Origin: Obrimoposthia wandeli
Lineage: Eukaryota
DNA: 59,213 bases
Assembly (NCBI GenBank): GCA_977020255.1
Contig: CDROCS010004439.1
Coordinates: 1-59,213 of the forward strand
Direction: 5' to 3'
A program made the translations under genes and the position numbers. The first letter of the stretch is position 1. Every line of letters starts with the position of its first letter. This document shows positions 1,453 through 59,213 of the stretch, piece by piece. The notes beneath the pieces were generated by a model. It made no database searches and was not told where the DNA came from. It saw only the letters and a list, made by a program, of their open reading frames with translations.

Positions 1453-4400
1453 ACATGAGCACTTATATGGGAATCTAAATTTTACAATATATAAAGTAAG
1501 TTTTTTAATATTAGTATGTATATAATTAGTACTACAATTTAAGTACTTTTTAAAGTTGTACTTATTAATTATACATCGTTAACTGTGGTGCAATGTTTAG
1601 CTGAGCATAATTATTATTTTTTAAAGTTAGATGTTTAAGAGTAATAGTACTTAAATATAAATATTTTAATACAGAAATATTCATGTCTTCTATATCAACA
1701 CAGGCTTCAATTAGTAGAAAATTACGTAAAATATAAAGTTCACGTTTAGTAGAATACGGGAAAAAAGCCAATATTAAAGAAATCTGCACAGAAAAATAGA
1801 GTAGAGCGGACCAATGAAAGAGAATAAATAAACTTAACTGAAACTGAAGATAAAAGTATAAACTTATGAATTTTGTATATCATAGTTATGAATTAAAAAC
1901 TCCATATGATATTTAGTTGACCGATACGTAGTTAACGCTATAATTGTTCAATACAAAAATTTTGCCAGAAATCTATGTACCCAGGGCGATCCGAGAACCT
2001 TTTGTCAAAATTGAAATCGTATAAATATACATTTTTACTGTACCCTGGCATTTCTAATGAATAAATTGTTTAGTTACTTATGCTATTTCAGCAAACAGTT
2101 TGACGCAGAAGACAATTTGAGACAGAGTTTGTAAAGGGCATCTCCAACAAGAACACTCAGAAACAGATGACCACGTTTTATTCAATTTGTAAGTATTTTA
2201 CCTCTTTGTCGAGTCCTGACAATTAAAATAAGAAAGAGGATTTAAAAAATGTGACAACATTTGGAATGGCTAATTTTCTTCTCTAAGGCACTGAACATAG
2301 CATACGAATTTTTGTAGCAACATGGACGAGAGACTGGGTCATTACTTATTAGCTTCTAGGGTGACTTTGTCTAAAACTTTTTGTAGAAAGGGCATGGTTG
2401 AGACCCTCGACCTGAACAATAGTCTCAACAACGGTGAAAGAATAGAAACGTCTGAGGCTCACAATCTTAAAATCATTTCATAATTTCCGTCACCATCATG
2501 AGTCTAACCAAATCTGATTAGTCTGCCCAACCAGAACAAGCCCGAAGATACATAATTAACCGCTGCTGCTGATACTTCTTATTTTATCAATCAATGCTTG
2601 CATTTGCATTTTATTGTCAATCAACGATGATAAGTGATAAAAAAAGTTCTTCTTCATTAAGAAAAGATTATATACTACTGGCTGATTGTTATAAAGCATT
2701 AAAAATACAGTAAATTCACGTAGTTAAAGTACAGAAGCTAAATAAATGTGTTGTGTTAACAGGTTAAAGTATTGAAAAAATCAAAAGCCAGAGAAGTGAA
2801 ACCTGCCACTGCTGATTCACTACAGTGAAAGATATTATGTAATTTCAGGAAGCACGTATTGACTAAATTAATAAACCTAAAAATAACATATTTGATTTTT
2901 AACTCTATTTTCCCATCTAGACATGTTTTTTTATTTTATTATTATGTTTAATATTTAGATTGTATATTTATATTCATCGAACAACCGACAACATGAGTAG
3001 GAATGTAAAACTGATTCAAATCGATTTTGTTTGTCTGTGGTTATTTAACCATTAATCTGGGGGTCTCTTTAACGAGTTTAGCATTTGTGGATCTTATATA
3101 TATGTGGAATATTTCCAACTCCCACCAATCGGGAACCATTATGCTCCAGTTTTTTTGTGATATAATTTAAATTCCAATAAATCAATCATTTATATTTTTT
3201 TTTAATTTTGACTTTAATATATTTATGATTTGCCCCAAATTTACGATTTATCAATTTCTTCGTAGATTTAATCTTATTTTAAAATTAGTAATCAATTATT
3301 AAATAACAACGGAATAAGTTGGATAGTCCTGTAATAACAGGAAACTCCATTAACTTTTTGAATTAAAAGAAAATTTGATGCTCACCTTGAGATCTCTTTA
3401 ATCAAATAGTTTTTATTGCACAGTAATTATCAATAATAACAAGTGTTTATATTTAGACAACAACAAAAAGTTGACTTCAAATTCCTGATAAGAAAAGGTT
3501 ATTCAGATTCAAACCCAAAACAATTGATTTTACATGATGTAATTTGTTTTTGTTTCAGTTGGAACCATGAGTAAATTTTTGAGCAACAAAATGTCAAGAA
3601 CGGTATGGAAAGGAAGAAACATGATCAAATGAAGAAATAACTTTTAAGGCAAATATTGAAAGAAATAACTCACTCAAACCGACTGCATCTGATCTGATGA
3701 TGCAATTGTCAGTGATATAGAGTATTAACAAAATTAACAAAATCTTTCCAACAGTTCAATTATTATATTTGGGGATAACTGTTCAGCTCACACTAAAAGA
3801 AAAATTACACACAATCGTTTAGAATTTCTCAAATTTATTTGAACATCCATCAATTAGATAATTAACTTCAATGAATTTTATCAGTAAGCTAGTGAAGCTG
3901 ACACTGCACCATCTGGAGATCTGGTGATATTCAGCCAACGACTTCAACCCATGGGTCTCAATTATACAAGATTCCAAGTTAATAGCCATAGATTGAGATG
4001 TTAAACCCAAAAATATTGCAACTACTATAGAATCGCAGTTTTTATCCCTTTGATCCGTTCAAATTGTCAAACTTCAAGATGATGCGATGTATGCATTGGT
4101 AGAGGTTACAAATAAAGAAAGAGCATATGTCGATCGATAACAATATGATCTGATATGATGAAAAATCTGCCAACATTGACAAAATATGATGATTGTATTG
4201 AATCCTGATCGATCAAAGACAGCAAAAATGCCTTTGAAACTCTTCAAACATACATGATGCAACAAAGATTCGATTTATTTTCTGCTCTTGACCTAGTTCA
4301 CGATAAGATCAATAAAAAAATTAAACCTCAAAAACAACTTACATTGACGCTTTACTGTCAGTATACTTTTTTAATATAACCCTATAGTAAGCAATGTGCA

Positions 4401-11029: not shown

Positions 11030-13019
11030 ATTAAATTATTTCAAAAATGGTCTGTAAGAGTTAAAGCATAAATTAAAAAAAGATAATCTTACCCTCTATA
11101 TTTCCAGTTTATAGTCAAGACTGACAATTCAAAAAAAGTAATTGTAAAAATGGGCAGATAATACTTTACGCTATTTTAAATATTTCGCTAAAAGTAACCC
11201 AATGGACTCAAGTTTTCACTGTAAAATAAATTAGTCTAAATTAAAACCACATGATTAAATAGATAATTTAGAAAAACATATACAAATATCTTTATAAATA
11301 GCACATTTAAACTATAAAATACTCAGATATCATTCTGTCCGACTAGCTCATTTCAATAAAACTATTTTCATTTGATATTTCATAGATAATACGGAGATAT
11401 TCTATTCCAATGGCGGTTTTACCCTTAATTTGACCTAAAATTAATTATATTTTCATATTTTTGATCATATAGATCTTAAAATATATCTATAAATAAGCAC
11501 ATTTAAACTATAAAATGCTCAGATATCATCCTGTCCGACTAGAAACGTTTAATGATTTTTAAAATAAATATAAAGTGTCTAATTTCTTATGATTTCTTAT
11601 ATTTCTTTCTCTAATTCTTTTTTCCCACTCATTAGTAGAATAAACAATCTAATATAACTTATGTATATTCAAAAGTGTTTTAAGGGTTCCTCATGTACCA
11701 AATCATATGAAAGTACAACTTAAATATAACTAAATAAAACTTAAAAGAAAAATATTTGTGGTAGGTAACGAATTCGTAAGGAAAAATAATAAAAATCAAA
11801 TTTAGTTGATTTAATTTATGTAACTGATCTGAAAATAAATGTTATAAATTATAAATTTAAAACAGAATCAATTCATAAAACTAACGAACTACCATTGTGC
11901 TGAAAGCAAAGAAAATTGTAAATACAAATCATCTCAATGGCACAACCAAAGGTCACTAGTCACCTTTATACTCACCTAGTCAGAGTGTAAGGGTTGATAG
12001 CAATATAGGTAATGCAGATAAATTGAATAGAAAACATGGACGTTGAGTTGGAATGATGTAGTCAACATTATTAATTCGTTGCATCTGAAAAGTCTTCATA
12101 TGTTGCGGTGTGGTTCTCGGCTTTTCAGACAAAGTGCGAGACTTCACTCGATTTTGTTAATCTATGCGTATTCAATGTGATTTACGTATCTCAATGCAAA
12201 AAATGTCTAATAGCTTTAAAAGGAAATACTGAAAGACTGTCATAAACAAAAAATAGTGAAGTTCGAAAATATCTAATTTATTTAATATAGAGTTTAATTT
12301 TAAGTTGTAATAACAACTAAAGTAAATGTCAAAATAATTTTCAAGAAAACATCATGTTATATCAGCTTTAAGACATTGTCTATGAATCTAATCTTAAATT
12401 GAATAAAATATCATATTTCAATAATTTTAGAAATGGCTTTTGATGGCGTTTACATGTTATAAACAATACACTGTATTTATGTATAAATATCAGGAAAAGT
12501 AAACTATTAAGTTCAGAAGGATTTTATTTATTTTTATAGGTTAGATTACAGATTTAATATTATATGAAAATATAATCAAAGTTTAATTTTAAATTAATAA
12601 TGTTTGCTAATTTATTATATATTTTATTTAAAATTAAACTTTGTTTATATGCTTATTTGTATCTCAATTTTTGTTTAAAAATATATATAAATTATACAAA
12701 TATATTTAATTAACAATAGTTACATTTGTATACTAAATATTTTAAATATATGTCAACTTATGAAATTTAAATAAAATAATATTCATATGTAAACTGTTTC
12801 TTTTGTATTAATTTATATATGACCGATTTCACATCCAAAATATGTCAGTGAAAATTCGAGTCGGACAAGTTAATTACCTATTATTTAAACAACAAGATTT
12901 TTTAATCAATACCATGTGATTAATAAAGTATTTTAAATTCCAGATATTGTATTTACTTTTATTAATTCTAAAATAACAATGATACACATAAAGATATTAT
13001 AATTTTTTTTTAATATGTA

Positions 13020-14423
13020 TGTTAGAAAAACTGATTTGTTTAGTTGGAGTATCTTTAGGAAGTATTATTCTTGTTATTGGTGATTTACAAAGTGATTTCT
13101 TAAGTTAAACGTTACTGGTAATTCACTCGTACATCAATCTCTCTTACTCAATTGTACGAGTACTTTTCACACCTGTAAGTGCACAGTACATTTCCCATGG
13201 TTTTAGCAAATATACCTTTGTCTAAGGTTAATAGTGGTGCTACGATGTCTGTATTTGTACTAGCTAGTGCCAGCTTAGTTCTTGTTATCTATTCATTTAA
13301 TTGACAATCTCTCTCAACCATCATTTGATAAAATATGTAAATTTTGTTGTTAAAATATGTGTGTAGCTGAATTTCCCTGTGATTTATTGTAACTCTAGCC
13401 ATTAATATTGGTTCTTTTGACAAATATATTCCAGTATGGTTTGATGTGTTAATTGTCATTCACATCGCGCCTTATTCTCTTTTTTAATGAATATCAATTC
13501 TTTTTAGCTGATATTGCTATTAATAGTGAAGTTGTTGGTGTTGATGAAATTGGTCCTGTTTTGTTATAGAATCTTTCACCTCCTTTATTATACAGATAAC
13601 ATTTTACATTATTAAATTTGATTTTCTTTAGCAATATTAATGTGAATTTTTTCAGGCCTGTGTATTACTCCATTGTCCTGTCTGACAATATGTGTCTGTC
13701 ACTTTATATTCGGGATATTTCCTCATGCGTTGGGTAGTTAAATTTGATAAGTCCCATCTAATAGCATATAATCCACATATGTTTCACCTTTTCTTCTCCT
13801 TTACAATATCCATCGTTCTATCATTGTCCTATTCTCGTAATGGTTTCATATCATCGTATACCAATTTTGGTTTCGGTTTTGTAAATCTTATCTATTTATA
13901 TCATTCCTTTTCGGAATGTGTCTTCACAATCTTTTGAAGGAACGTTCTTCAATGGTCAATTTGTACTAAGTGTAATTTCGGATAAGAAACTTCTGTGTCC
14001 ACAGTAGAACGCACTGTAACTTAAATGGATGGAACACTCTCTTACTTGTACTAGTTATTTATCGACGTCCTATTAAACAAAATAGTTTTTTGATGGTTGT
14101 AATTCTGAACAATCTTTGCTGTCGAGTAATGAGTATTTCTGTTCCATCTTTGGTACACTACAATCGTAAGCAACCAGTGCCAATGTATGTTGCATTCTCA
14201 TGAACATTATTAACAGCATCATCATCATTGTTGTAGACATATTAGGTTCAATATTTCTTTTTCTAGAACGATTATGTTTATTCTCTCTTTGACGATTCTC
14301 ATTAATTGGCTCGTTATCATCTTCAGTTGCTTCCATAAATGTTTCAGCATAATCACTCAATTTTATCCATTTTCCATTCTCATCGATACGTTGTTGCAAT
14401 ACATTCTCAATTAAATACATCAC
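13020..14423 (-). pseudogene. env: Retroelement env-like glycoprotein (chuvirus/herpes gB-like class III fusogen), decayed
   Basis: A hydrophobic signal is followed by ALVAYDC..YSLLD..C. Later segments read TKLALASTN..GIFAKTMGNVL.TYRCE and LPVTF..F..PITRII, motifs typical of chuvirus-like glycoproteins carried by LTR elements. Confidence 0.7.
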
Positions 14424-28104: not shown

Positions 28105-31052
28105 TATCACCTTCGGTTACGACCGCAAACTCGCAAGGTGACTTATCATGCGGCATTTTTACTTCCCATGCTACTTTAACAGACTCCAATATCAATAGCT
28201 TAGAATTTCTCATTGATACAGGTTCAGCCATTTCGGCACTACCTATGTCCTTATATCCTACATTCCGCATGACCGACAGAATATTAGTTGCTGCAAATGG
28301 TACCACCGTTCATACTTATGGAACTACTACACTTCAATTTAGTCTTCAAGATATATCCACATCATTTAGTTGGACATTTACCATTGCCAACGTAACTCGT
28401 CCAATTTTAGGATCCGACTTTTTCTCTCATTATCGTCTACTAGTCGACTGTCATAACCAATGCGTACTCCACCCGACAGCACATGCAATTCCTCTGCCGA
28501 ACATCGAAATCAATATGCTTAACAAATTAACTGTCCAAAATTCTACTGCTTACATTACGGAACATTTTCCTAGACTTATTCATCGAACTACAGACATACA
28601 AAGCTCTGTTGAATCTTAACATCACATTATTACCTCACAATGCGCACCTGTTGGCCAACGTCGACGTGAATTGTCCCAAGAAAGAAGACTGCTATGTGAA
28701 GAGCAATTCTTACAACTTGAAAAAGATGAGATCATCAGACGTTCATCTTCTCCATGGGCTTCTCCACTACAAATTGTCCACAATAAAGATGGTACTTTGC
28801 GCATATGTGGCGATTATCGTGGTGTAAACAAAGTCACTATCCCTGATTCATATCCAATGCCTCTAATCAGCGATATCATTCAACGCTTTAACAAATGCAC
28901 AGTATTTTCGTCCATTGATTTAGTGAAAGCATATCATCAAATTCCGATGGAAAGTTCGTCGATAGAGAAAACAGCTGTCACCACTCCATTTGGACTATTC
29001 GAATATCTTCGAATGCCATTTGGACTTCGCAACGCGTCCCAAACGTTTCAACGGCATATAGATAGGGTCCTGCAAAATTTACCATATACAACGGCATATA
29101 TTGATGATATCATCATTGCATCGCCTAACGCTGAGGTACATAAAGTTCACCTTGAAGCAACACTCTCGCGACTAAATGAGCACAATCTACAGATTAAAAT
29201 GGCTAAATGTAACTTTTTTGCTTCACATGTAGAATTTTTAGGATACAATATTTCATCCCATGGTATTCAACCATTACCAAGTCGACTTTCTGCAATAAGA
29301 AACTTCCCTAAACCATCTACTACTACTGAACTACGCAGCTTCTTGGGAATGATCAATTTCTGCCGTAGATTTTTACCAAATCTATCTGGCAAACTTGCAA
29401 CCTTAACTACACTTTCCACTGGCAAGAAGCGTGCAAATATACAGTGGCCTGATAATGCTAACAACGCATTTTTACAAATAAAGGAAGAGTTAGTTGAAGT
29501 TACAACACTTAAATTCCCAGACAAGGATCTTACACTTACCACCGACGCTTCTAATGTCGCTATAATGATGCTTGCACAAATCAAACAAGACATTTCTGAA
29601 CCTCTTGAATTCTTTTCTCGTAAACTTTCGGTTGCACAAACCAGGTATTCCGCATTCGATCGAGAATAGTTAGGAATATACCTTTCTGTAAAGCATTTCG
29701 AACATCTTATTATTGGAAGGCATGTGATAATCTACACTGATCATAAACCTTTGATACATGCACTCACAAAAAAAAACTCCCAAACAACAGCGCCACATCA
29801 GCTACTTATCAGAGTTTGACATTGACATACGTCACATTTCTGGTGCAGAAAACATAGTGGCTGACTGTTTTTCACGGATTGAAATCGACTCAATTGATTT
29901 CGAGCCAATGTTATCACAAGATGTACTTGTGGAAAACCCTCCATCATCTGGAGACATATAATTATTTCAGACACCGCCTACCTTGAGAAATGGTATCTAC
30001 TATGACTATACTCTCAGCGGTTGTACTAGACTGGTGATAGGATTAAAATTACGCATTGATGTTTTTAAGGCAATCCATGCAATAACTCATGCAGGATTTC
30101 GTGCTACCTATGAACAAATCAAAACCAGAGTAGTTTGGCTCTTTATGCGAAAAGATATAAAGAATTGGTGCAAATCTTGTTTAGCATGTCAAGCCAATAA
30201 AGTCGTGAAACATACTAAACCACCAATTTTACAATTTCCAACAGGCAGCAGATTTGATACAGTACATATCGACATTGTAGGACCACTACCACCATCGAGA
30301 GGGTACACTTATTTACTAACTATGATTGATTGAAAAACTCGTTGGCCCGAAGCGTTTCCAATTCGTACAATATCAGCGCAAACTGTTGCTGACATCTTCA
30401 TAGCAAATTGGGTTGCCAGATTTGGTGTCCCGAAACGTGTTATTACAGATCAAGGCACCCAGTTTGAATCGGCGCTTTTCACATCACTAATAAAGCGTAT
30501 AGGGTCACAAAAAATTCGCACAACAGCATTTCATCCACAATCCAATGGTCTTATAGAACGATTCCACATAACGTTAAAGAATTCATTTAGATCACTTTCT
30601 GTTAACCACTATTGGATTCTTGCACTACCTTATGTGTTATTAGGATGGCGCAACATTATCAGCAGCAGACATGGCGCTTCTCCTGTTCAAATGCTATTTG
30701 GGTGTAACACCAATCTAATTGATGAAATATTTTTTGGCAACAACCCGTTAGATGATGTTCATGCGCAACGTGTCAGGGAACATTTTAAAACGCTGGACAC
30801 TACACCTACTACAAAATCTAGTCTGAATATATATGTACCAAAAGAGCTAAAAAACGCTAAGTATGTTTGGTTACAACGGGAATCTCCTACTTCCTTGCAG
30901 GCCAGATATTCTGGTCCTTTTCTTCTTTTACATAGCAATTTCGACAATAACACAGCAGTAATACTTGTAAACGATAAACAACGTACCGTAAACGTTTGTA
31001 AAATTAAACCTGCCTCGCATATAGATGACGACACGTGCTGTGGAGCCCTATA
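28101..31052 (+). pseudogene. pol: Gypsy pol (PR-RT-RNaseH-INT)
   Basis: FLIDTGSA; SPWASPL..ICGDYR; YIDDIII; TTDAS; TDHKPL; HAITH..CKSC; HIDIVGPLP; ITDQGTQFES. In-frame stops at about 28617, 29667 and 30331, and a frameshift near 29770. Confidence 0.95.
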
Positions 31053-43982: not shown

Positions 43983-44414
43983 AGTAGGTGGATATGTCCG
44001 GTCTAATCCACCCCCTCCCCTGGGGGGCTACCAATGTCCTTTAAAACCGTGCATGTGTGTGGAGTGAAATTTCGTGCAAATATATACATGTCCTGAGACG
44101 TGTATACACGTTTCAACTGTACAAGTGCAGTTCACTGGTGGTATATGATACGGTAGTCAAGGTGGGGAAATTAAATTGGAAAAATAAGCGCATGGTATAC
44201 TTGAATTCCGCCAAGAGCAAATTCAAGCAAGTTCCTGCGATTCCTGGCTTACTATTTACCTTCTGAAATTCACCAATTTGTCCGCACATGTCCCATACCA
44301 CTGCCAATAAATCCCTATATATGACTTTATAAATTATATAAAGTAACGTATACGTGTTTTTTTTCTCCTATCTATCCTACAACCCTCAACACCCAAAAAG
44401 ACTAATTACCCCAT

Positions 44415-44789: not shown

Positions 44790-45254
44790 TTATAAAATCG
44801 AATCAATAATGTCTGGATAATAAATTTTTTTCAATCCTAATATCATAACTTTGCCACTGGGATATATATTTACACATAGTGGTTTAAACTTCAAATAACT
44901 GAGTGCAGGAAAAATTTCTGGTTCAAGCATGCATTCTTCTTTCATTTTCTCTGCAATTTTATAAAGATTTATTGGGTTTCCGAGATTAGCTGAAATTGTG
45001 ATTGATTGTTTTGCAGTGATTCGAATTCCAAATGGTAAATTGAACTCATTCAATGTTTTTTTGCATCCCATAACACGACAACTTCCTAAAAGAATTCAAT
45101 ATGAAAATAAAATAAAAAACTAACCTGAGGGAAAAATAACAACTGTAAAATAGTTAAACCTTTTCACATATTGTCTCAGCTTTCATTCATTGAATAGTAA
45201 GTACGAAATATCATCTGCTATTCTGATTTTATAATTTATATTTACGAGTTTCAT
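44790..45254 (-). pseudogene. TATA-binding-protein-like gene: 2 exons (45254-45125, 45085-44790), 39-nt intron, one internal stop
   Basis: Spliced product MKLVNINYK..TVVIFPSG|SCRVMGCK..ANLGNPINL..LEPEIFPALSY..PLCVNIYPSGKVMILGLK reproduces both TBP repeats (LIFSSGKMVCTGAK; YEPELFPGLIY..LIFVSGKVVLTGAK). Confidence 0.85.
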
Positions 45255-46851: not shown

Positions 46852-48355
46852 ATATACTTTATAAATTCATAATTTATAGTGATATGACACGATATATACA
46901 CGTGTAGTTAAATAGTGTTGGGGTTTCTGTTTGAAACTAGAGGCCCCCAACGTGAGTTCTGTAACAATAGGGCTTAAATATGTATGTGGCCTATATTTTT
47001 CTGGTTTATTTCGTTTAGTCTCAGTTCTAAAGGATTTTGCCTTCGTATTTGTATTGCAGTTGTGTGGAAAGTGATGTTCGTAGTACACCGACGACTTCCC
47101 GCTAACGTAGTGTCGAATATAGTAAAATTCGTATCTTTCTAGTCCTATGTGGGTCGATCAAATTAGCTTTACTCGATATGTAGGAAATAATATATTAATT
47201 CACGCGTAACTAAAAAGGAGCTATATCGACAATGATTTGTCTTACTACGCTTGTTTCCACACGGGGTAAACAAGTATGACCTTTACCTAACGTATTGAAT
47301 TTAATTTCTATATATTGATTTAAGTTTCGGATTCTACGTTCCGTAGTTGTTCCTTTCCTATGCTATTCAAATTATTCAAATCAATTAAGGTGATCTATTT
47401 CTCAGATTAGTCAAATACTTCTCAACTTAATTTTTACACAACTTTTTTAAATGATTTTTTAAAATGAAGTAACCCTTAAATTAAACAATTATTTTAATGA
47501 TTCTTTACACAATTTCTTTTCTTTAAAACAAAACGATTATACAGTTTCTTTTCTTTAAAACGAAACAATCACACAATTTCTTTTCTTTAAAACAAAACGA
47601 TTACACAATTTATTTTCTTTACAACGAAACGATCACACATTTTCTTTTAAATAGTTCACTCTACTTACCTCGATCAAGCTAGGGTTTGGTAATGTGAGAT
47701 CCTCGTCTAATTTCCTTGTGTAGTTCTTTTCCTCCGGCGTCCGTTGTCTGGTTGATTTCTCTTGTACGGCTGGTTCCTTTCTTGTACTGGCAATTAATGT
47801 TAACAACTTAATTTTTCCTTTTTTATTCAATTACATCATGAGTCTCCAATTATTCTCGTGGCAATTCGTCAATTCGCTTTCTCAGTCTCACAGTTTCCGT
47901 TTTTGTTTTCTTTAATGATTCGATTGCTGCTTTTATATAGTTTCATAAATTATAGTTTAGATAATTCAATTAGGCTAAGTGCCCTTACTTAGCTGAATGG
48001 ATGCCGGTTGTCCAATTCTCAGGAATCTGCAGACAGCATTTAGTTGTCGCGGTTTCTTGTCAGCTGGCTAAATTCCCAGCGAGTGTAATTTGAACCGTTA
48101 TTACAATTTTCTGCTTGTTGCAACTTATTTATTATTTTTGTCTTTTGTAATATTTTCCCCTTAACTTTCCTATATACATCACATTATACAACTGACCTCT
48201 TCAAGGTCCTAAATTACGTTTTCTTAATTTTTAATTTTAATTTAAAAAATATTAATTTATTTATTTATTCAACCTTAATTCAAGGTTTTATTTCTCCTAC
48301 ATATAGTTAATTTTATTTTAAAAATTTAATAATTCCCAATCTTAACAATAGTGAG
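46852..48355. mobile_element. Unidentified 1.5-kb insert, possibly an LTR/gag remnant, replacing the G-rich array
   Basis: Homology to the 33-kb Maverick end stops at about 46850 and resumes at about 48358. The insert has a decayed coiled-coil frame on the - strand and a 32-bp tandem repeat (about 4.5 copies, 47507-47650). Confidence 0.4.
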
Positions 48356-49677
48356 AGGCGGGGTATGTGTAGATGGATAAAGTTAATGAAAAATACTGTA
48401 GCACCCGGAGGGGCGCGTTGGGGCGACCGCACCCCCGCCTCCCAAAGGGGAGGGGAGCAGACGGGTCGAACATTTTTGGGCGGAAGGACCTTAGGAGATA
48501 TTTTGTTGACCTCTTTGTTGATATTTTTCAAAATTTCACTACACACACATGCATGAAATTTCACTCCACACACATGCACGATTTTAAAGGACAGTTGTAG
48601 CCCCCCGAATGGACAGGGTATTAGACCGGACATATCCACCTTCTACAAAAATTAACAAAACTGACGTATACATATCCACGAATTTATAGCTGCTGTATCA
48701 AAAAATTACATCAAACTGTTATAGGCTGTGAATAGGCTTGAAGATGGTAGGTTACTTATGAATAATTTAATTTTATATATCATTCCTTTTGTTTTTATTT
48801 TTCACACGAGATGGAATTGAAGATGGTAGGTTACTTATGAATAACCCGGTACAAGACAATGCATTTCCTCTAACTTCAAATTTACCGAGTATTTTTTATG
48901 AAAATAACGAAATTTAATTCGTACAAATTAACCTCCTTCTTTAGACAGATATTATAGAAAATATTTCGACTATAGTTCATAAAATTTTAGGAAAGGTTTT
49001 TGACAACATTGAAAGAATTAAAAATGAATTTCTGAAAATTTATCTGAAAACGATAAAAAAAACTTTATTCATCATTGCCTTGTCGAAGAATAGTATATTA
49101 CGCGAAGACAATAAGATATTAACTCTGTGATTTTACTTTATGTTTCACTAAAAAATTCTGTTCATATTTGTGTGACATGAATAAATGTTGTAGTGGTCTG
49201 TTTTACTTGTCACTTTGAAAATATATAAATAGTATTAAGCATTGTATATTTACGAAATTAATAGTTCGTTATCGACAGATTAATATTATAAAAAGACAGC
49301 TTAAAATAACTTTGGATTTGTGACTCTTACCAGTTTATTCATTTACAGACAACAAAAAATTATAAATAAAAAATAATATACAACATTGTGGACGAATACC
49401 ATAGTGAATTAGCATTTTTGACGTTCACTAGAAAACATGACCTATTGTTATATAATTTAAAAAATACTAACATTTAAGAAACAGTGCAGTTATCAAGAAA
49501 TAATTAACCATCCGTGATATCATCACATTTAGTTTATAAAGTTTAATATTGTTAAGAATATAAAAGAGTATTTGTTAAAATTGGTTAAAACCATAAAAAA
49601 TATACCTTTGACAAACAGATACTCAAAATTTAAAATAAATTAACATTACTTAATATTAACCTATACACATACACAAC

Positions 49678-50750
49678 TGTTAATAAACGGGTGTAAGGCA
49701 AAGACCAATATCCTCAACAATATATTCACAAACAACTATCCAATTTTGTTAACAAATATTCTTTGTGGATAACAATATATTCAATTCTGATAAATAACTA
49801 TTCTTTGGATAACAATATATTCAATTCTGATAAATAAATATTCTTTGCGGATAACAATATATTCAATTCTGATAAATAACTATTCTTTGGATAACAATAT
49901 ATTCAATTCGGATAAATAACTATTCTTTGGATAACAATATATTCAATTCTGACAAATAAATATTCTTTGTGGATAACAATATATTCAATTCTGATAAATA
50001 TCTATTCTTTGGATAACAATATATTCAATTCTGATAAATCAATATTCTTTGTGGATAACAATATATTCAATTCTGACAAATCAATATTCTTTGTATAACA
50101 ATATATTCAATTCTGATAAATCAAATCAATATTCTTTATTCTTTGGATATCCAATGTAAAAATATAAATAGTTTGTGAATAAATAAATATTTGTGTTATA
50201 TCCAATTTAAATGGTTGCTATTTATAGCAAAAACTGGTAAATCCAGGTAGAGGAGATTCTGCTGGTAGCTGGCACACAACAACAGAACAGATGCCGGAAA
50301 ACATCGCTGTCTGTTCGACTTCTGGGCAGAGAAATCCTGGACAGGTGAGAAATCTGGCCAAATAAACTGCATCAACACACAAACCACAGATGCCGGAAAA
50401 CACGCTGTCTGTTCGACTTCTGGGCAGAGAAATCCTGGGACAGGTGGGAAATCTGGCCCATATAAAAACTGCATCAACACACATACACAAATAAACACAT
50501 TTTAGCTGTGAGTGAGTAGTGAGATGAGTATGTAAGTGAGTATGTGAGTGTTAATGTTGAGTGAGTTGTGAGTGTAAGGAAGTTGAGTGAGTGTGTGTGT
50601 GTGTGTTGAATTGTGCACTCATATATATGTGAGTGTTAATGTTGTGAGTGAGTTGTGAGTGTAAGGAAGTTGAGTGAGTGTGTGTGTGTGTGTTGAATTG
50701 TGCACTTGCGCACACTAACATCACATGTCGACAATATTCGTCGGCACATG
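49678..50750 (-). repeat. Probable 3' LTR rich in internal tandem repeats
   Basis: On the - strand: 2 x about 80-bp CA-rich units (50545-50707), 2 x about 100-bp units (50288-50482), CTATAAATA near 50222, AATAAA near 50135, 9 x 40-42-bp units (49757-50130), and the end TTATTAACA at 49678. The upstream boundary is uncertain. Confidence 0.55.
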
Positions 50751-50820
50751 AAAGGGGGAATCTTTCCTCTTTCCCTGACTTTATTATTGTTATCTCTGGC
50801 TTCGCGGAATCCACCGTGAA

Positions 50821-50904
50821 GTCAGAGATAATAAACGCCATCTCCTGATGAGCCCGGCAGGGCGAAAGGGGCTTTTTCCCGTCGGAGATTGATTATCTTG
50901 AGAC
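50821..50904 (+). ncRNA. Type I hammerhead ribozyme, slightly decayed
   Basis: ATCTC-CTGATGA(50845-51)-GCCC/GGCA/GGGC-GAAA-gGGG/CTTTTT/CCC-GTC-gGAGAT. A distal stem I (AGATAAT 50826-32 pairing with ATTATCT 50892-98) lies beyond an internal loop. Two deviations from consensus. Confidence 0.8.
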
Positions 50905-51270
50905 AAAATGCCAAAGTGCATATTTTTAAAATAGAACTTTTCCTAATTAAGGAAAGTTCTAATTAATTCTTTAGTTAATTAATTTTTTTTACTTTTTATT
51001 TTTTAAAAATTTTTATATTTTTATTTTTTCAAAATAAATAGTTATAATATTTTCCCAACAATCTCCGGGTCATAAAAAGTCTCTGTCCTCAGCTTTATAA
51101 TCTATATTTTAATTATTGATGAAACTATTTTGTCTTGTTACTATTGTTAACTAGTGTTGTTTGTATGTTATAACTGATCAATGTTTTATTAATCACAATC
51201 ATGTCTGGTTAAATATCGTTAAAAATTTAGGACAAGAATGAAAACAGAATAAAATAATAACAATACTACC

Positions 51271-52442
51271 TTAATCCAACAAAATCGGGGAGTTTTGTGT
51301 ACCGGACTCCGAGTTTCCGGTCTTATGTGAGAACGATGAACTGGGGTTGTTCTCGCTAGATGGTGGATTCATCACCTCGGTCAAATCAAACTCTCTATTC
51401 AACATTTCCTCCTTCATTATGAAAATTTTTCGGGTGTGATTTGCATCTTCCATGCTAGTGTGGACTCCTTTTGTGTTTCTATATTTAAGTATTTCCGCAC
51501 CATGTTGGCGAGTCCAATATTTGGATGATTGGGATTTAGTTCTGATTTTTGCTTTCAGATATTCCTAAATCAACAATGTTGAATAACATCCATTTCTGTA
51601 GGCGTAAAGCTTTTAAATCGTTTGTTAGTCCCACACCTACGATGATGTTACCATACACAATGTTTTTTACTTCCTCAATTACTTCATCAGCATCTCTACA
51701 TCCTTGTAACTTTCTATCTGACAGTCCAGTTATTCTAGTAACGTAATTTCTTACTCTATCTCTAGTTACGCACAGTGTATCTATAATTACGTTACCTATG
51801 TAATTTATAATAGAAACACTTGCTAAAACTGGCTGTTTATCTACTGATATCACCATTTCGCAATCGAGGAATAAAATTGCTGGTTTCTGTGCGTTTTTTT
51901 AATTCAAAAAGGGCTATTTGTTGAGGTTCTTCTGCTTTTCTTATTTTTTCTATAAATAATAGATTTGGTCCTCTTCCTATTTTTATGCTATATTGATTTT
52001 CTAATTGAGCTGCTTGTAAGGTGTAGGTGGATTTCCTATCATCAGAAAGTTTAATGTCTTATCTGATTTGGTTTTTAAATGGGCCACTCCTAGTGCCACG
52101 TGAATATCTATTTTTTCACAATTATTATCGGGGAATATTTCGCTGAGAGCCATATGGGTTGGTCTTTTTTCATTGGAAAAAATAAGTGCGCTTGTTCTTT
52201 TTCTTCTGTGGTACTTTTAACTTATTAGGAAGAAATGTTTGATTTGAAAACATTTTTTCTTCCTCCGTTGTTTCTAAAGTATGCAATGCTAAACTGACGC
52301 ATCTTTGATACAGGAATTTTGCTAAATACCACCTTTCTGGTATATTTTCCGTTTTTCCTCCTTTTCTATTTTTGCTGTGCTTTTTGTTTGATCTGACCGA
52401 GAGTGAGCTGGTCTGAGTCGTATCCAGGTGATTGTTATCCAT
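51271..52442 (-). pseudogene. ORF with basic N-terminal region and C-terminal DEDDh 3'-5' exonuclease (REX4/ISG20-like)
   Basis: ILFLDCEMV..LASVSIINYIG..IIDT..NYVTRITGL..IIVGVGLTNDLKAL..IGLANMVRKYL..GVHTSMEDA. All D-E-D-H-D residues are present, with frameshifts near 51545 and 51470. Confidence 0.88.
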
Positions 52443-52499
52443 TCTGCTTTAATCAATTTGTTAGTTGAATAAAATAATATAATTATTTCACAGTCTTAA

Positions 52500-53005
52500 A
52501 GTTATAAAAATATCAGTCTTATCCATGCAGTATGTGGGATTTGTCATGAAAATAAACTTATTAATAAAAGTTAGACAATTTGTACAAAGGAGGATGTATG
52601 GTTATAGTTTAACCAGAATTTTGTTCACCAATGTTCATATCCGAGTCATATCCATCATCAAGTGTTGTATTAGTTGGGATAGTAGGATTAATGGTCATAT
52701 AAAAGTTTATCATGTCGCTATAGGTCATCATTTGTCTTCTTAATGAGGCTATAGTTGATCGTTGACTTAAAGTTGTTGTATTAAATAGTCTATTCTGCCA
52801 AAACTATGTGTCAATCTCCCTTCTAGTTCGTCAATTGTTAAATCATTATTCAATTTTTTCTTCCACACTTTGTTTTATTAACTGTTTCAGTGATTCATTT
52901 TGAGTTGTGATCTTTATATAGTAGTCGTCATGCTGTCTGGAAACATCTCGAATCTTTTTCTCTAATTTTTTGCATTTTTTACAAACTTTTGCCAATCTGT
53001 TCATT
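52500..53005 (-). pseudogene. Decayed coiled-coil ORF of unknown function
   Basis: MNRLAKVCKKCKKLEKKIRDVSRQHDDYYIKITTQNESLKQLIKQSVEEKIE.. with several stops. Confidence 0.35.
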
Positions 53006-53229
53006 TTTATATCTAAAAATAACCATTATTAAATTTCAGGATGCGTTTCCTGGTGATTTTATTTTAATATTATTTCATTAAATCGTCTTTAAAAATATAC
53101 ATATATCAAATTTTTATTCTATTTCCTAACTAATTTAGATTTACTTAATAGTACTAACATTTTTTGTTACTTAAACGGTTTTATTTAAAAAGGATTTGAT
53201 TATTGTGTTATATTTCTTTTCCTATTTTC

Positions 53230-54420
53230 TATTACAGTATTTATGGATAATTCTGAAGAATTCTCATCCTTGGGAATAATATAAATAGTAAAAGGGCCTG
53301 GGGGCCCACAAAAGTGTTTTAGTTGTTTTGTTTCTATCATTTTTGTATGTTTCAAAATTAACATTCTCCATGATATTTGATTTATAAAAATATAATTATT
53401 TCGATTACTATAACTATTATTATAAGTTCTTTTTTATCTTCATTCCTTGAATGTTCTTGTTTACCATAGTGCATTTTTAAACTTTCATTAAATGATTTAT
53501 AGGATATTGTTTCTGTTGTTTTTAATTTTAATTTAATTCTTATTTTTTCCGTAATTTCAACTTGATTTGTAACTCTGTAACTTTTTGATGTAAATGTTGT
53601 GGTATGTAGCAATTGTTTTGTGGTTATTTCTTTAACATATTTCTTAATTTTTACTGCTGACCAACGACCACAAAAAATTGTAGGTTGATATAGTTTGATA
53701 TCTTATTTCCTAAAAAAATTGTTAATTTTGTTAGATTTTTATAACTTTCAAACTTTTGACTCCATTGTCTGTACATTATTGGTTTATTAGTGATTACGCA
53801 TTCTCTATTGTCTATTATTATTTTCTTTGGATATCTTATATTTTCTATGGTTAAATTTGTTTTAGTTTGTGTATTTTCTAATTGTTTTTCTGAGTCTTTC
53901 CAAAAATGAGCATTATGATCTCTATATCTAATTCTAATGATGGCTTTATCTAAATTATCTATTTTAAGTTGAAATTCCCATTTTATCATGATTTGATGTT
54001 TTTATATATATTTTGCTGTTGTTTTTAATATTGATGCTAGGTATATGTGAGTTTCTATAATTCTTTCATAGAGTGTTATATTTTTTAATTTCGACTTAAT
54101 TCTTATTTTTATATTGTGTTTCTGTTCTTAAAAATGGTATTGTATATTTTTGTGATTTTATTCCTGAAATAATTATATTTTGTTTTCTATCTGTTTGTGT
54201 GATTTGCACATTTTCCTGTTTTGTTTGTAAGAAGAGAAATTTTTAACTTTATTGATGTGATTTCAGGTATTATTGTTAATCCAAAAATTTTTATGAGATG
54301 AGTTGTTGAGTCGAATTTATTTGTTTGTTGTTGTATGATTGATTGATTTTCATTTATGTTTGTTGCGTTTACTTTCAGTAGGTAATATTTTATTATAAAA
54401 TATATTATCAATAACATCAT
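53230..54420 (-). pseudogene. Second putative type I membrane protein downstream of integrase
   Basis: N-terminal signal-like MMLLIIYFIIKYYLLKVNA and near-C-terminal LIIIVIVIEIIIFL. ORFs 54187-54420, 53651-53989 and 53382-53612 can be linked across stops and frameshifts. Confidence 0.5.
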
Positions 54421-54483
54421 TATTTTACCAATTTCTTTTATTGATATTTTATTGTATTTCTGGTTTGATGACTCAAAATAGTT

Positions 54484-55850
54484 TTATTTTGTTTTTTGTG
54501 AGTTTTTTATTGTCAACATTTGTAGAACTGTATTATAATTAGTTGATCTTAAGTTATATTTGTGACTTTTTATTTTTGTATTCTCCTCAGGTATTTCTCG
54601 ACATCTGTTTATATGTGCTCTTATTTCTTTTGATTTTGGTTCATTATCTAGTTTAGCTGTTATGTTGGTTCCGTTGGTACTAATGACTGTATATGGTCCT
54701 TTGTATGGTTTTGATAATTTGTGAGACAATCCTACATTAATTTGTGGATTGTGAATCATCACTTTACTTCCGCTTTTTATATTTGATGGCTTAGTTCTTC
54801 TATCATAATATTCTTTGTAATTTTCTTGTATGTTTTTTACAAATAGTTTAGCTTTTTCGAATGCTAGTTTTATTCTTTCTCTAATTTCTATTTTATATTC
54901 AGGTATTTCTAAATATTGTGTAGTAGGTTGTAGTAATGTTAGGTCAATAGGCATTTGAGGATCTCTGAGGAACATAAGATAAAAAGATGTTTCTCCTGTG
55001 GATGCATGTACTGATGTTCTATATGCAAAAAGGCATGGAGGTATGTGTAAATCCCAATCTGTTTGGTTGTTGTTTGTGTATGATGCCATCATATCTTCGA
55101 GGGTTCTATTAAATCTTTCTACTAACCCGTCAGTTTGAGGGTGATATGGTGTTGTATTGATCTTTTTATGTGAAAAATTTCAGCTATTGACGCTAATACA
55201 TTATTTATAAATTCAGGACCTTTGTCGGTTATAATTTTCGGGGTGCACCGAAAGTAAAAATAATTTTTCGACTAAAACCTTCGCGATGGTTTCAGCCTTA
55301 TGATCATGTGTAGGAAAAGCCTCTGGCCATCTTGTAAAATAATCAGAAAATACTATTATATATCGATTTCCTCGGGGTGTTTGTGTAATGGTCCCATTAC
55401 ATCCATGGCAACAGTTTCCATGGGGGCTGATGGATAAGGTATTGGCTTTAAAGGTATTTTGTGGTACGTAAAGTATTTTTCCGTTTAAGACATATTTCAC
55501 ATGTTTTTACACCAATTTTTTACATCTTCTTTTCATGTCAATCTAATAGTATTTTAAATTTAATCGTGAATGTGTCTTTTTTGATGATAAATGTCCTCCT
55601 AGGGCTCCATTATGATATTGAAGAAGTAATTGACACTGAATTTCTTTAGGAATAACTAGTGAATATATAGATTTTTGTCATTTAAATAATATAATATTTC
55701 ATTACTATATTTGTATCGTGATTCGTAGATTTTTAAATGTTTTCTTAATTTTTCATCTGTTGGTACTTCGTTTGTGCTAATGTATTTAGTTATTTGCTGA
55801 ATTTCATTATCTTTGCTTTGAAGTTTAGTAATTACTTTTTTCATCATATT
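54484..55850 (-). pseudogene. Gypsy integrase
   Basis: HHCC region (KNWCKTC), MDVMGP..GNRYIIVFSDYFTRWPEAF, TPYHPQTDGLVE, KLSKPYKGPY (GPY/F module), YNLRS. Confidence 0.93.
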
Positions 55851-55989
55851 TAGCTTGAATTATTGTAAAGATTTAATTCGATGTCGTTAGCAGTTATTTC
55901 GTTTATTTCTTCTCTTATTCGTGATAGACAATCTGCATTAGCGTTAAATTTTTTTTTCTATATTTTATTTCAATATCAAATTTTTGTAA

Positions 55990-57100
55990 AATCAATGCCC
56001 ATCTCATTAATCTAGATGTTGTATCCTTATGATTTAAAAGCCATTGTAATGGTCTTTGATCTGTGTAAACATAAACCTTTCGTCCTAATAAGTAATGTTT
56101 AAAAATGTTCCATTGCGAAACAAATAGCCAGCATTCTCTTTCTATCGTTGAGTAATCTTTTCATGTTTTTAAGACCTCTGCTCGCATATGCTATCACATT
56201 ATCTTTTCGTTATTTTCCTGTTGTCCTAAACTGCTCCTAACGCATAACCACTGGCGTCAGTCATAACTAAAACGAGTTATTAAAATTAGATATCTAAGTA
56301 TAGGTTTTTTCGATTAATTTTTGTTTTAAATATTCATAAGATTCTTGTTGTTCTTTTTTCCCATTCAAATTTTTCTTTATCTTTTTTAATAAGTTTATTT
56401 AATGAACTATTTGTGCGAAATTTCTAATAAATCTTCGATAATAATATCCTGCAAGCCCTAAAATTCTGTATATTTTTACTGTTTTTGGGATTGGAAAATT
56501 TTTTAATCTTTTTCTACATTACTCTCGTCTGGTTGTATTCCTTTTTGCTGGATACAGCATGTCCTAAGTAATTTCATTTTTATCTTTTTATCCATTCATT
56601 TCTTTGGTTTTAGTTTTAATCCTGCTACCTGTAATCTTAAGAATACGTTTTCTAAATCTTTAAATGTTCTTCAAAATTTTTGAAAAATAAGAATGTCGTC
56701 GATATACCATTACGTGATCTGCATCCATTAAAATATATGGCTCATACATCTCTGAAATGTTGCTGGAGCTCCGGTTAATCCAAATGAATTCATACAATCC
56801 TTCTCCTGTTGAGAAAGCTGTTTTATATTTATCTGACTCCTCACTTCTATTTGCCAGTATCCACTCTGTAAATCTAAAGTTGTAAATACTTGTGCATTTT
56901 TTAGTTTGTCTAATATTTACTCACCTCTGGCAGTGGATAAGTATCTTTGTGAGTGACTTGCTTCTAGTTTTCTGTAGTCTACGCAAAACTTCAAAGAACC
57001 ATCTTTCTTTTTTACTAAAACAACAGGTGATGTCCATGCAGAAAACTTTTCTAACAATTTCGGCTTTCTAACATTCCTTTTATTTGTCTTTGAGCTTCAT
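55990..57100 (-). pseudogene. Gypsy reverse transcriptase and RNase H
   Basis: [79 protein letters not shown]. Many frameshifts. Confidence 0.95.
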
Positions 57101-57689
57101 CTCTGTAGGCATATGGAATTCGGTAGGTTTGTTTTATTGCGGTGTTTGTTGTTAACGGAAGATTTATGTTTTATCAAATTTGTTCGACCTAAATCGTATT
57201 CATTTTAGCAAATATTACATCATATTTTCTTGTTAAAGTTTTAAGTTTTGATTTTTCATAATCATTTAATTTGATATCGTTAAAATTTATCGTAGATTTA
57301 TCTTTTATTTTTCATTATCTATTAATTCAATATTTCAATAACATCTCTATTTTCTCAAGACGTACTCCTTCCTTGAGATGAATTTTATTAATGTCTGCAT
57401 TTAGATTCTTGATTGGTATTGTGTTGTTTTTTATTTTACAAATTATATTTGGCAAAACGTAGTTCAAGGTTTCTGTTGATATTTATAAGACTCCAAATAA
57501 TACATCTTTTTTCCGCATTCGTTAGTTTCTAGTTGTAACATTGTTTCTGTTCTTGGTTGGAGAATGATATCTTCCTTTTATTTCTTAACTCGTATTCATC
57601 TTTGGCGTTAGGTCTGTAATGCTCATTTGATTTTTTTCAAAATCAAAGTGAAATTATTTCCTAATTCTCAATGTATCTATTCCGATGAT

Positions 57690-57960
57690 CATTTGGCAAA
57701 GACAATTTTTCATTATTTTTGTAGGTATTTTATGAATTTATTTCCTATTTTAAAAAGAAAGTCTAATTTTCCTATTATATTTACGGGCGACTGTTTGCTG
57801 CTGTGACTTGGACTATTTTCCTTAAGAAGAAGTAATTTTTGTTGTGTTTTAAGAAAGATTCGTCTAAAACTGTTACGTTTCTTTGATCCTGTGTCAATTA
57901 AAGCTAAGTTTATATTCGTTAATTTCTACTTTACATATGGTCATGTTTATCGTTATCTTT
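57690..57960 (-). pseudogene. Retroviral-type aspartic protease
   Basis: CKVEIN....LIDTGS (across a frameshift) ..IIGKLDF..MIIGIDTL. Confidence 0.8.
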
Positions 57961-57989
57961 TGATTTATTGTATATATTGTTGGTGCAGT

Positions 57990-59213
57990 TGATTTTTGTA
58001 TAGTTGTTTTATCTATATATTTTCTTAAATCAGGATATTTTGAAGATTCCGTTTTTTCTGTTTCTTTTGGTACTTGTAATTTTTTGTATATTTGTTTCTC
58101 GCATTTCATTTGATAATGTGTTACTATGTTTTGATGATGATTAAAAAATAAGGAATTTTGCCAAAAATGGGACACATCCTAAGACACTTCCATGTTAATC
58201 CTCCAACTTATAAATATAATATGTTGATAAAATTTGACTTAGAAGAATCTTAAAGCAAATTAATACATATATTCCAACTAATCCAGAAAAATGCTTGTCC
58301 AAAAATTAAAATTTACCCCATATTTTGACATGGTGTTTAGTGGCTTTATAAAATGATTTGGAGTAGAAAGTAATGTCGTAATCGGACGGCTAATTCCGTC
58401 AGGTAATTGATCTTTTCTATGATTTGTGTTAAAATTCTGGATCTTATTTTAGAAATAAAATTTCATTTTCTTAACTATCTATATCTTCCTGTATATAAAT
58501 TCCTTTGTGTTTAATCTGTTATCTGATTGTATATTGATGCCGTTAAGGAGAGTGGTTAATTGTAATTTTGTGGCCTCCTAAGTGACAATATCTCTTCTGG
58601 AAGTGAAAACTAAATATATTTTGAAATTTGATAATGAGGTGCCAATATGTTTGAGCAGTTTATTTCTTTTATGCTAAAAGTGTTATATGATTCTAGTGAT
58701 TGGTTCACAAATAATGAATTATTTTTCAAGAAATTGGTAATTTTTTGTACATTTTTGATGATTTCTATGTTAACTTTTCTACTTTTTACATTGATAAGTG
58801 TATAACACCTCCCATTACTCTTCCAAAAAGTACCGTCAGCTAATGGTACAATGGTGTTGGGAATACTCCTGGGTTAGTTAGTAAATAATTGCCAATTTCG
58901 TTTTTAATATTTCCTGATTTAATTTTACAATCATTCATTATGGTTTCTCTATATATTGCTTCTATTGTCATTAGTCTCAGATAAAAAATAATCTAATTTA
59001 GGTTAAAATAATCATAATTTTTAATATCAAATTTAGTTGGTGTCGTTTTTGAATTATGTATTTTTCATTACTAAATATATCCCTTTTTATAATTAGTTGT
59101 GGAACAGAGTGTCCACATCGATTTCTTTTTAATAAACGTGATTCCTGAACCTTGTTCAATAGACACAATATAGTTGGAGTTGGTTAATACGCACCGAACG
59201 GAAGCACAATGAT
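57990..59213 (-). pseudogene. env: gB/chuvirus-like env, C-terminal half, directly upstream of protease
   Basis: LLTNP..DGTFGRVMGGVIHL..EPITRII..EINCSNILAPHYQI..IWGKF..FSGLVGI..GLTWKCL. Homologous to 13020-13300. Confidence 0.72.

Follow-up and report, generated by a model that had tools for sequence, protein, structure and literature searches.

A Ty3/Gypsy element of Obrimoposthia wandeli with an envelope frame before pol, an exonuclease ORF and a conserved antisense hammerhead motif in its terminal repeats

Contig CDROCS010004439.1 (here C4439) of the 1.35-Gb Obrimoposthia wandeli assembly GCA_977020255.1 was analysed over its entire 59,213 nt, referred to below as the window. One end of it carries a minus-strand run of retroelement-like open reading frames (ORFs) together with a plus-strand hammerhead ribozyme motif. 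Does this run form a single element, and what might such an element do with an exonuclease and with a ribozyme encoded antisense to its own genes? A sequence-only reading had proposed one infectious element of more than 9.5 kb with an RNA-level counter-defence cassette. We found that this end of the window holds the 3' two-thirds of a Ty3/Gypsy element of ~14.3 kb. The core of the element is of a known kind, and its accessory set was not found in the open-licence literature, a scope that does not cover subscription journals and Repbase. The antisense hammerhead is the strongest and most testable part of this set.

One element between paired terminal repeats

Copies were collected by DNA searches of the assembly (about 3,000-3,400 first-look candidates each, 40 of them scored), and 20-kb stretches were fetched at the 10 exonuclease-anchored and the 10 pol-anchored top matches, a sample biased to close relatives. 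The end of a long terminal repeat (LTR) and the protease were present in all 20 copies, and a second LTR in 17. The LTR pairs were 1.1-1.4 kb long and 86-100% identical, several of them at 99% or more. Both ends could be parsed in five of the 20 copies, all with a 4-bp target-site duplication (TSD) and an identical primer-binding site (PBS); total length among these was 14.0-14.3 kb, and 11.5 kb in one deleted copy. No primer tRNA was matched to the PBS with a guessed tRNA pattern. The exonuclease segment stood in the same order in nine of the 10 pol-anchored copies, the tenth having lost it by internal deletion. Among the exonuclease-anchored copies (n = 10), three had internal pol deletions and one was truncated in env. 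The element is young and high-copy.

The single element that had been proposed was thus borne out, and pol, exonuclease and hammerhead co-occur in the same order between paired LTRs with a TSD. The same reading would have been abandoned if other copies of this pol lacked the segment at 50.8-54.4 kb, which was missing from one of 10 only. Chance adjacency of separate elements has next to no probability in our estimate. That odd copy speaks for it, as do four of 20 sibling exonuclease loci without this pol within 6.5 kb upstream and one tandem array of the 3' segment; the odd copy is explained by internal deletion, the four loci by adjoining sister-family sequence or a foldback repeat, and the array by one local rearrangement. 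Moreover, the segment is enclosed by paired LTRs with a TSD, and the hammerheads that stand alone are for the most part solo LTRs (a TSD in 7 of 14; 0.6 expected). The array, at C2540:439092-459854, has seven units of small ORF plus exonuclease ORF, joined via the outer repeats of the LTR, with the central LTR and the hammerhead absent.

Features were mapped onto the window by tblastn with unbroken natural frames taken from other copies, and domains were assigned by Pfam. The order envelope glycoprotein (env), protease (PR), reverse transcriptase (RT), RNase H (RH), integrase (IN), signal plus transmembrane (TM) segment, coiled-coil ORF and exonuclease, as described before, was recovered in full on the minus strand.

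49678..59183, minus strand: part of the element in the window, with ORF order matched by tblastn with unbroken frames of other copies and by Pfam
49674..49677: left copy of the 4-bp TSD, the same four bases being at both ends of the insertion in copy C118
49678..51060, minus strand: 3' LTR (TG...CA); its outer end has tandem repeats of 40-42 bp
50787..50834, plus strand: hairpin of ~21 bp on the antisense strand, next to the hammerhead on its 5' side, in the window subfamily only
50840..50889, plus strand: type I hammerhead motif at the U3 end of the LTR, antisense to gag-pol, with a predicted cut after 50883
51061..51075, minus strand: short purine-rich tract before the 3' LTR, a weak polypurine tract read at the junction
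51274..52448, minus strand: 391-aa ORF with an N-terminal domain and a DEDDh 3'-5' exonuclease, frameshifted in the window
52612..53025, minus strand: ~130-aa ORF with basic and coiled-coil parts and an acidic tail
53203..54450, minus strand: C-terminal polyprotein module with an internal signal-like segment, a beta-rich ectodomain, a TM helix and a short tail
54540..55680, minus strand: integrase (H2C2, rve, GPY motif) by Pfam and tblastn
55960..57100, minus strand: RT and RH of Ty3/Gypsy type by Pfam (RT ~57100-56340, RH ~56350-55960)
57650..57940, minus strand: aspartyl protease by Pfam and tblastn
58020..59183, minus strand: gB/class III-type envelope glycoprotein, C-terminal part and TM region, by tblastn

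The element runs off the contig end, and no copy aligns to the final 30 bases of the window; the gag and 5' LTR absent from the window are supplied by C118, a copy that has the same flank (from 48185) and the same TSD. The run had been called similarly decayed. The decay is mostly contig error: over 53201-59100 the window showed 121-129 indel events against each of nine copies, ~63% of them in homopolymer runs, while copy C2697 showed 9-16 events against five other copies over the same span; C118 was part of this comparison. Over 48185-59183 the window contig looks like a second, error-rich version of the C118 locus.

The antisense hammerhead and the exonuclease ORF

The hammerhead had been placed ahead of an LTR-like region; both are present, and the motif sits inside the LTR. 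It has the core CUGANGA / GAAA / NUH and three stems with stem I open, which is type I topology, and the core is invariant at all but one position. The single varying position is the one that is free in hammerheads. The motif was found in the 3' LTR of 19 of the 20 copies and in both LTRs of 13. Of 20 sibling exonuclease loci, 19 are followed by the motif in the antisense direction, at a distance of ~90-190 nt from the inner LTR end. Among 32 distinct sequences, which are related to each other so that their changes represent few events, 96.9% of cells were paired, as against 33-55% in slid controls. Three pairs changed on both sides. A U-G/C-G pair of stem I (19 and 13 of 32 rows) works solely on the antisense strand. 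Across five sibling LTR types the hammerhead was 73-81% identical, with upstream flanks at shuffle level. Based on pairing, two-sided changes and conservation against diverged flanks, the antisense hammerhead is judged to be real and under selection, and in sequence terms it is an island of strand-specific conservation in the LTR. The sense genomic RNA contains nothing but the inactive complement; an antisense RNA must therefore be the target of selection.

A tight hammerhead pattern gave 1,868 exact matches in the genome and its reversed control gave 0. Among the first 100 matches listed, at least 16 same-strand pairs were 12.6-14.2 kb apart. When 20 unpaired sites were fetched, four proved to be 3' LTRs behind an exonuclease and one was followed by the family PBS; of 14 unpaired sites tested as solo LTRs, seven had a TSD (0.6 expected). 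The window's own hammerhead departs at two places from most copies, and the Rfam scan of the window gave 0 hammerhead matches, its motif lying below the gathering cut-off. The motif of copy L005 scored 32.4 bits (E 1e-4) against Rfam Hammerhead_1, just under the cut-off of 34. The hairpin region folded with z -6.3 in L005, and the hairpin was not alignable in sibling LTR types. No conserved antisense ORF was found ahead of the hammerhead in the LTR, which led us to reject the idea that the motif helps to initiate translation of an antisense protein further downstream, as described in PMC13725137.

The exonuclease ORF of 391 aa is intact in many copies. It matched Pfam RNase_T and, in the PDB, ISG20L2 (E 7.7e-12), SDN1 (3.3e-9) and also ISG20. 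The ExoI D-E, ExoII D and ExoIII H-x4-D motifs were all kept in an alignment of versions 40% identical, and dN/dS was 0.10-0.28 in six unsaturated pairs. The REX4-like exonuclease noticed earlier is thus a genuine DEDDh ORF, by sequence of the ISG20/ISG20L2/REX4 type and under purifying selection. AlphaFold models of this ORF and of the ectodomain described below were poor (mean pLDDT 40-42), and only residues ~81-170 of the exonuclease ORF were confident; they matched cupin folds with Z up to 9.6, a lead to a cupin-like N-terminal domain. An Atlas search with this domain gave no usable match. Protein database searches with the exonuclease ORF, as a single sequence and as an alignment, found no relatives, a blank that is no proof of novelty.

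When 20 weak RNase_T matches were fetched among the 150 listed, all 20 were homologues at ~40% identity, and 16 had this pol upstream; the remaining four adjoin sister-family sequence or a foldback repeat. In the sibling subfamilies (L054, L066-L085) the env/pol protein is ~90% identical, whereas the exonuclease versions are 40% identical and the small ORF and the LTRs are unalignable. A 102-aa ORF stands at the position of the small ORF, with weak similarity to it (6/1000 shuffles as high). From these comparisons, the 3' module of the sibling subfamilies behaves as an exchangeable cassette. In all 20 window-family sequences compared, the exonuclease ATG follows closely on a pyrimidine-rich stretch ending in YAG. 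Both the small ORF and the exonuclease ORF begin 0-7 nt past such a YAG in both subfamily versions, the sibling count being pre-filtered for YAG and illustrative only. This spacing suggests that the two ORFs are expressed from spliced RNAs; no consensus-like donor was found in the 5' leader with a strict pattern. The long contigs C253, C506, C361 and C1802 carry many strong intron-free RNase_T-family matches, which suggests that the assembly may contain bacterial sequence.

The polyprotein and its membrane module

Gag, env, PR-RT-RH-IN and a module of signal peptide, ectodomain and TM helix form one reading frame of ~2,900 aa. Every junction is spanned by natural frames: one of 1,017 aa runs from gag into env, one of 1,641 aa from env to IN, one of 826 aa from IN to TM and one of 1,905 aa, in a sibling subfamily, from env to TM. 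The gag-env junction was unbroken in 9 of 17 copies, the env-PR junction in 14 of 19 and the IN-ectodomain junction in 13 of 18. Since in-domain controls of similar length were unbroken about as often (8/16, 11/19 and 4/17 copies), no programmed stop or shift is evident. Gag has three Cys/His knuckle-like motifs in frame and no Pfam match. The unbroken env frame of copy C3736 matched PF24664 with E 1.8e-91. By hydropathy, a signal-like segment precedes env, a TM region follows it, a second signal-like segment comes after IN and a final TM ends the frame. The env ectodomain is thus flanked by signal and TM segments and stands between gag and pol, as in gB-type elements. The domain order PR-RT-RH-IN is that of Ty3/Gypsy (Metaviridae), and the best PDB matches of RT were Ty3 RT (E 8e-74), a caulimovirus-type RT (2e-45) and foamy virus RT (3e-31).

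The second membrane protein proposed for the locus exists as a signal plus TM module; continuity of the junction makes it an in-frame C-terminus of the polyprotein and not a separate ORF. Its ectodomain evolves faster than pol, with dN/dS of 0.35-0.45 between subfamilies and ~1 within the window family, against 0.03-0.06 for env/pol; the first ectodomain repeat is the most constrained (0.16). An FN3 lead for the two repeats had an Atlas score of 0.87, below its threshold, and Pfam fn3 matched weakly in 4 of 12 members (best E 0.09). A protein database search with the module found no relatives, again no proof of novelty, and no LTR element with such a post-integrase membrane module was found in the literature covered. 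The polyprotein may be processed at the membrane of the endoplasmic reticulum to give Gag, fusogen, Pol enzymes and a second, fast-evolving surface protein, which could be an attachment partner of the gB-type fusogen. The module suggests a two-glycoprotein entry apparatus derived from one polyprotein. Elsewhere in the window there are fragments of another gB-type env, 31-54% identical (13018-14180, minus strand), and a distant Gypsy pol with an RT 38% identical (28620-30699, plus strand).

Known relatives and the possible role of the accessory set

An env before pol had been taken as new, and it is already published. Ty3/gypsy elements of GAG-ENV-POL order with a gB-type env are described from Nematoda, Bryozoa and Platyhelminthes, six of them in Schmidtea, and infectious particles are described there as unproven for most members (PMC13524379). 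The present element resembles Smed_errantivirus_1/2 of Schmidtea mediterranea in its Ty3/gypsy pol, its gB-type env between gag and pol and its multicopy state, and its env shares many motifs, judged by eye only, with the domain I-II rows of the supplement. The main text has 0 mentions of exonuclease, hammerhead or ribozyme, and no LTR or PBS is listed for the six Smed elements (PMC13524379). The giant planarian Gypsy Burro/GYPSM1 likewise has an env in frame between gag and pol, in a single polyprotein with extra domains (PMC6431247). Burro elements are 25-30 kb long with a ~5,000-aa ORF and BIR, BCL2, MATH and ankyrin inserts; in contrast, the present element measures ~14 kb and its frame ~2,900 aa. 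It lacks any BIR/RING/BCL2-type insert between env and PR and carries, in place of these, the membrane module, exonuclease and hammerhead.

A second GAG-ENV-POL family of the same genome (C76, C6390, C6901, C3263 and others; L044-L063) has an RT 62% identical and was the RT sister in a tree of families of this genome only that had not converged. Its frames reach 5,301 aa; they have BIR and RING domains inserted between env and PR, and a post-integrase extension of 1,750 aa contains a dual-specificity phosphatase. The family is Burro-like, and the phosphatase does not appear in the passages on Burro that were consulted in PMC6431247. Together with the by-eye likeness of env to the Schmidtea rows, this sister family suggests a planarian-like host.

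Bdelloid rotifer Juno and Vesta also carry a DEDD-superfamily exonuclease ORF downstream of pol. Their ORF3 is RNase D-like DEDDy and occurs in lineages without a bona fide env (PMC5408684), whereas the present ORF encodes a DEDDh exonuclease of ISG20/REX4-like type with an additional N-terminal domain, and it stands alongside an env. Hammerheads have been located in retrozymes, Penelope-like elements (PLEs), Terminons and RNA viruses (PMC4918200, PMC7761336, PMC4209133, PMC13725137, 10.64898/2026.07.22.740005). The element shares one hammerhead per terminal repeat, a 4-bp TSD and Gypsy-type ends with plant LTR retrozymes, and type I topology with the hammerheads of PLEs and Terminons (PMC4918200, PMC7761336). 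According to these sources, retrozymes are non-coding, non-autonomous, shorter than 1 kb and mostly of type III, and the motifs of PLEs are minimal and lack a stable helix III. Here a full type I motif with a 5-bp stem III stands antisense to the ORFs of a 14-kb autonomous coding element, which is no LTR retrozyme. The literature covered ties hammerheads to non-autonomous retrozymes and PLEs and does not connect them with autonomous LTR elements. It yielded neither an autonomous LTR element that has a hammerhead in its LTR nor a selected antisense type I hammerhead in the LTRs of an autonomous env-bearing Gypsy element.

We give about an even chance to the reading that the antisense hammerhead and the DEDDh exonuclease together blunt RNA silencing. 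Antisense or read-through transcripts would be severed by the ribozyme 100-190 nt short of the point where they leave the 3' LTR for the coding region. This cut would act as a fuse, leaving less double-stranded RNA or PIWI-interacting RNA (piRNA) precursor, and the exonuclease would trim or destroy silencing-related RNA in the same pathway. Cleavage in vivo, an anti-silencing purpose and infectivity are what we infer from the sequence. An antisense-strand ribozyme under selection points to a means of disturbing antisense or piRNA silencing by RNA alone, and this can be put to a direct test in the host group, whose PIWI system is well studied. The ~1,900 motifs genome-wide, many of them in solo LTRs, could also cut host transcripts. 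A fuller version, which we hold only tentatively and consider somewhat unlikely, is that the ribozyme defuses a piRNA-cluster trap, a host or cluster transcript entering antisense being cut in the LTR short of the coding region. In that version the exonuclease would degrade small RNAs, and the herpes-gB-like fusogen would have as its attachment partner a second surface protein, fast-evolving and FN3-like, released from the end of Pol by cleavage.

Several observations weigh against these proposals. Cutting antisense RNA alone leaves the downstream piece undestroyed. The sister family is abundant without an exonuclease match of its own and with no hammerhead in the scanned stretches; success therefore does not depend on the cassette. 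At 10 of its loci, the 2.2 kb ahead of gag held no hammerhead, a partial control in that these LTRs may be incomplete. The three two-sided pair changes are subfamily-level events, and the shuffle test for such pairs was not exceeded (483/500). In isolated segments the hammerhead fold is not the one of minimum energy, stem I being paired differently there. Confidence in the ectodomain model is poor (pLDDT 40), its Foldseek matches being C2 beta-sandwiches of low TM-score and not FN3, and a second hydrophobic stretch behind the env TM leaves the topology unsure.

The ribozyme might instead end a short structured LTR-derived antisense RNA with its own regulatory role. This is unlikely in our view: stable hairpins just 5' of the motif (z -6.3) and GC-rich structured sequence upstream in most LTR types agree with it, but between LTR types the upstream sequence is no more alike than shuffled sequence, and it holds no shared ORF. 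A replication function of the exonuclease (RNA or cDNA end processing, proofreading of a long genome), with no link to silencing or the ribozyme, is distinctly unlikely. Auxiliary replication roles have been discussed for the rotifer DEDDy ORF3s (PMC5408684), and the nearest solved relatives are general RNA trimmers; however, the longer sister family has no homologue in the 20-kb stretches examined, and the exonuclease and the LTR diverge jointly, like one module, and separately from pol. Cutting of the antisense transcript at both LTRs into a ~13-kb circular RNA, for replication or persistence, would match the geometry of plant LTR retrozymes, with one hammerhead per LTR (PMC4918200, PMC7761336), and the paired motifs 12.6-14.2 kb apart. 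It is nonetheless highly unlikely, because the motif strand is opposite to the PBS and the ORFs, so that the circle could be neither primed nor translated, and known retrozyme circles are below 1 kb. In the sources above, type I is the usual form of hammerhead in metazoan PLEs and non-LTR retrozymes, which would suit a neutral relic captured from a PLE or a satellite; this origin was already disfavoured and has only a very faint chance, the motif being conserved with compensatory changes while its flanks diverged beyond alignment.

Outside the element, the window carries an intron-free TBP-like frame at 44790-45095 on the minus strand (Pfam TBP, E 6.6e-11). It lies between inverted repeats of ~57-68 bp at 44011-44078 and 48550-48606 and is probably part of a DNA transposon or Polinton-like element.

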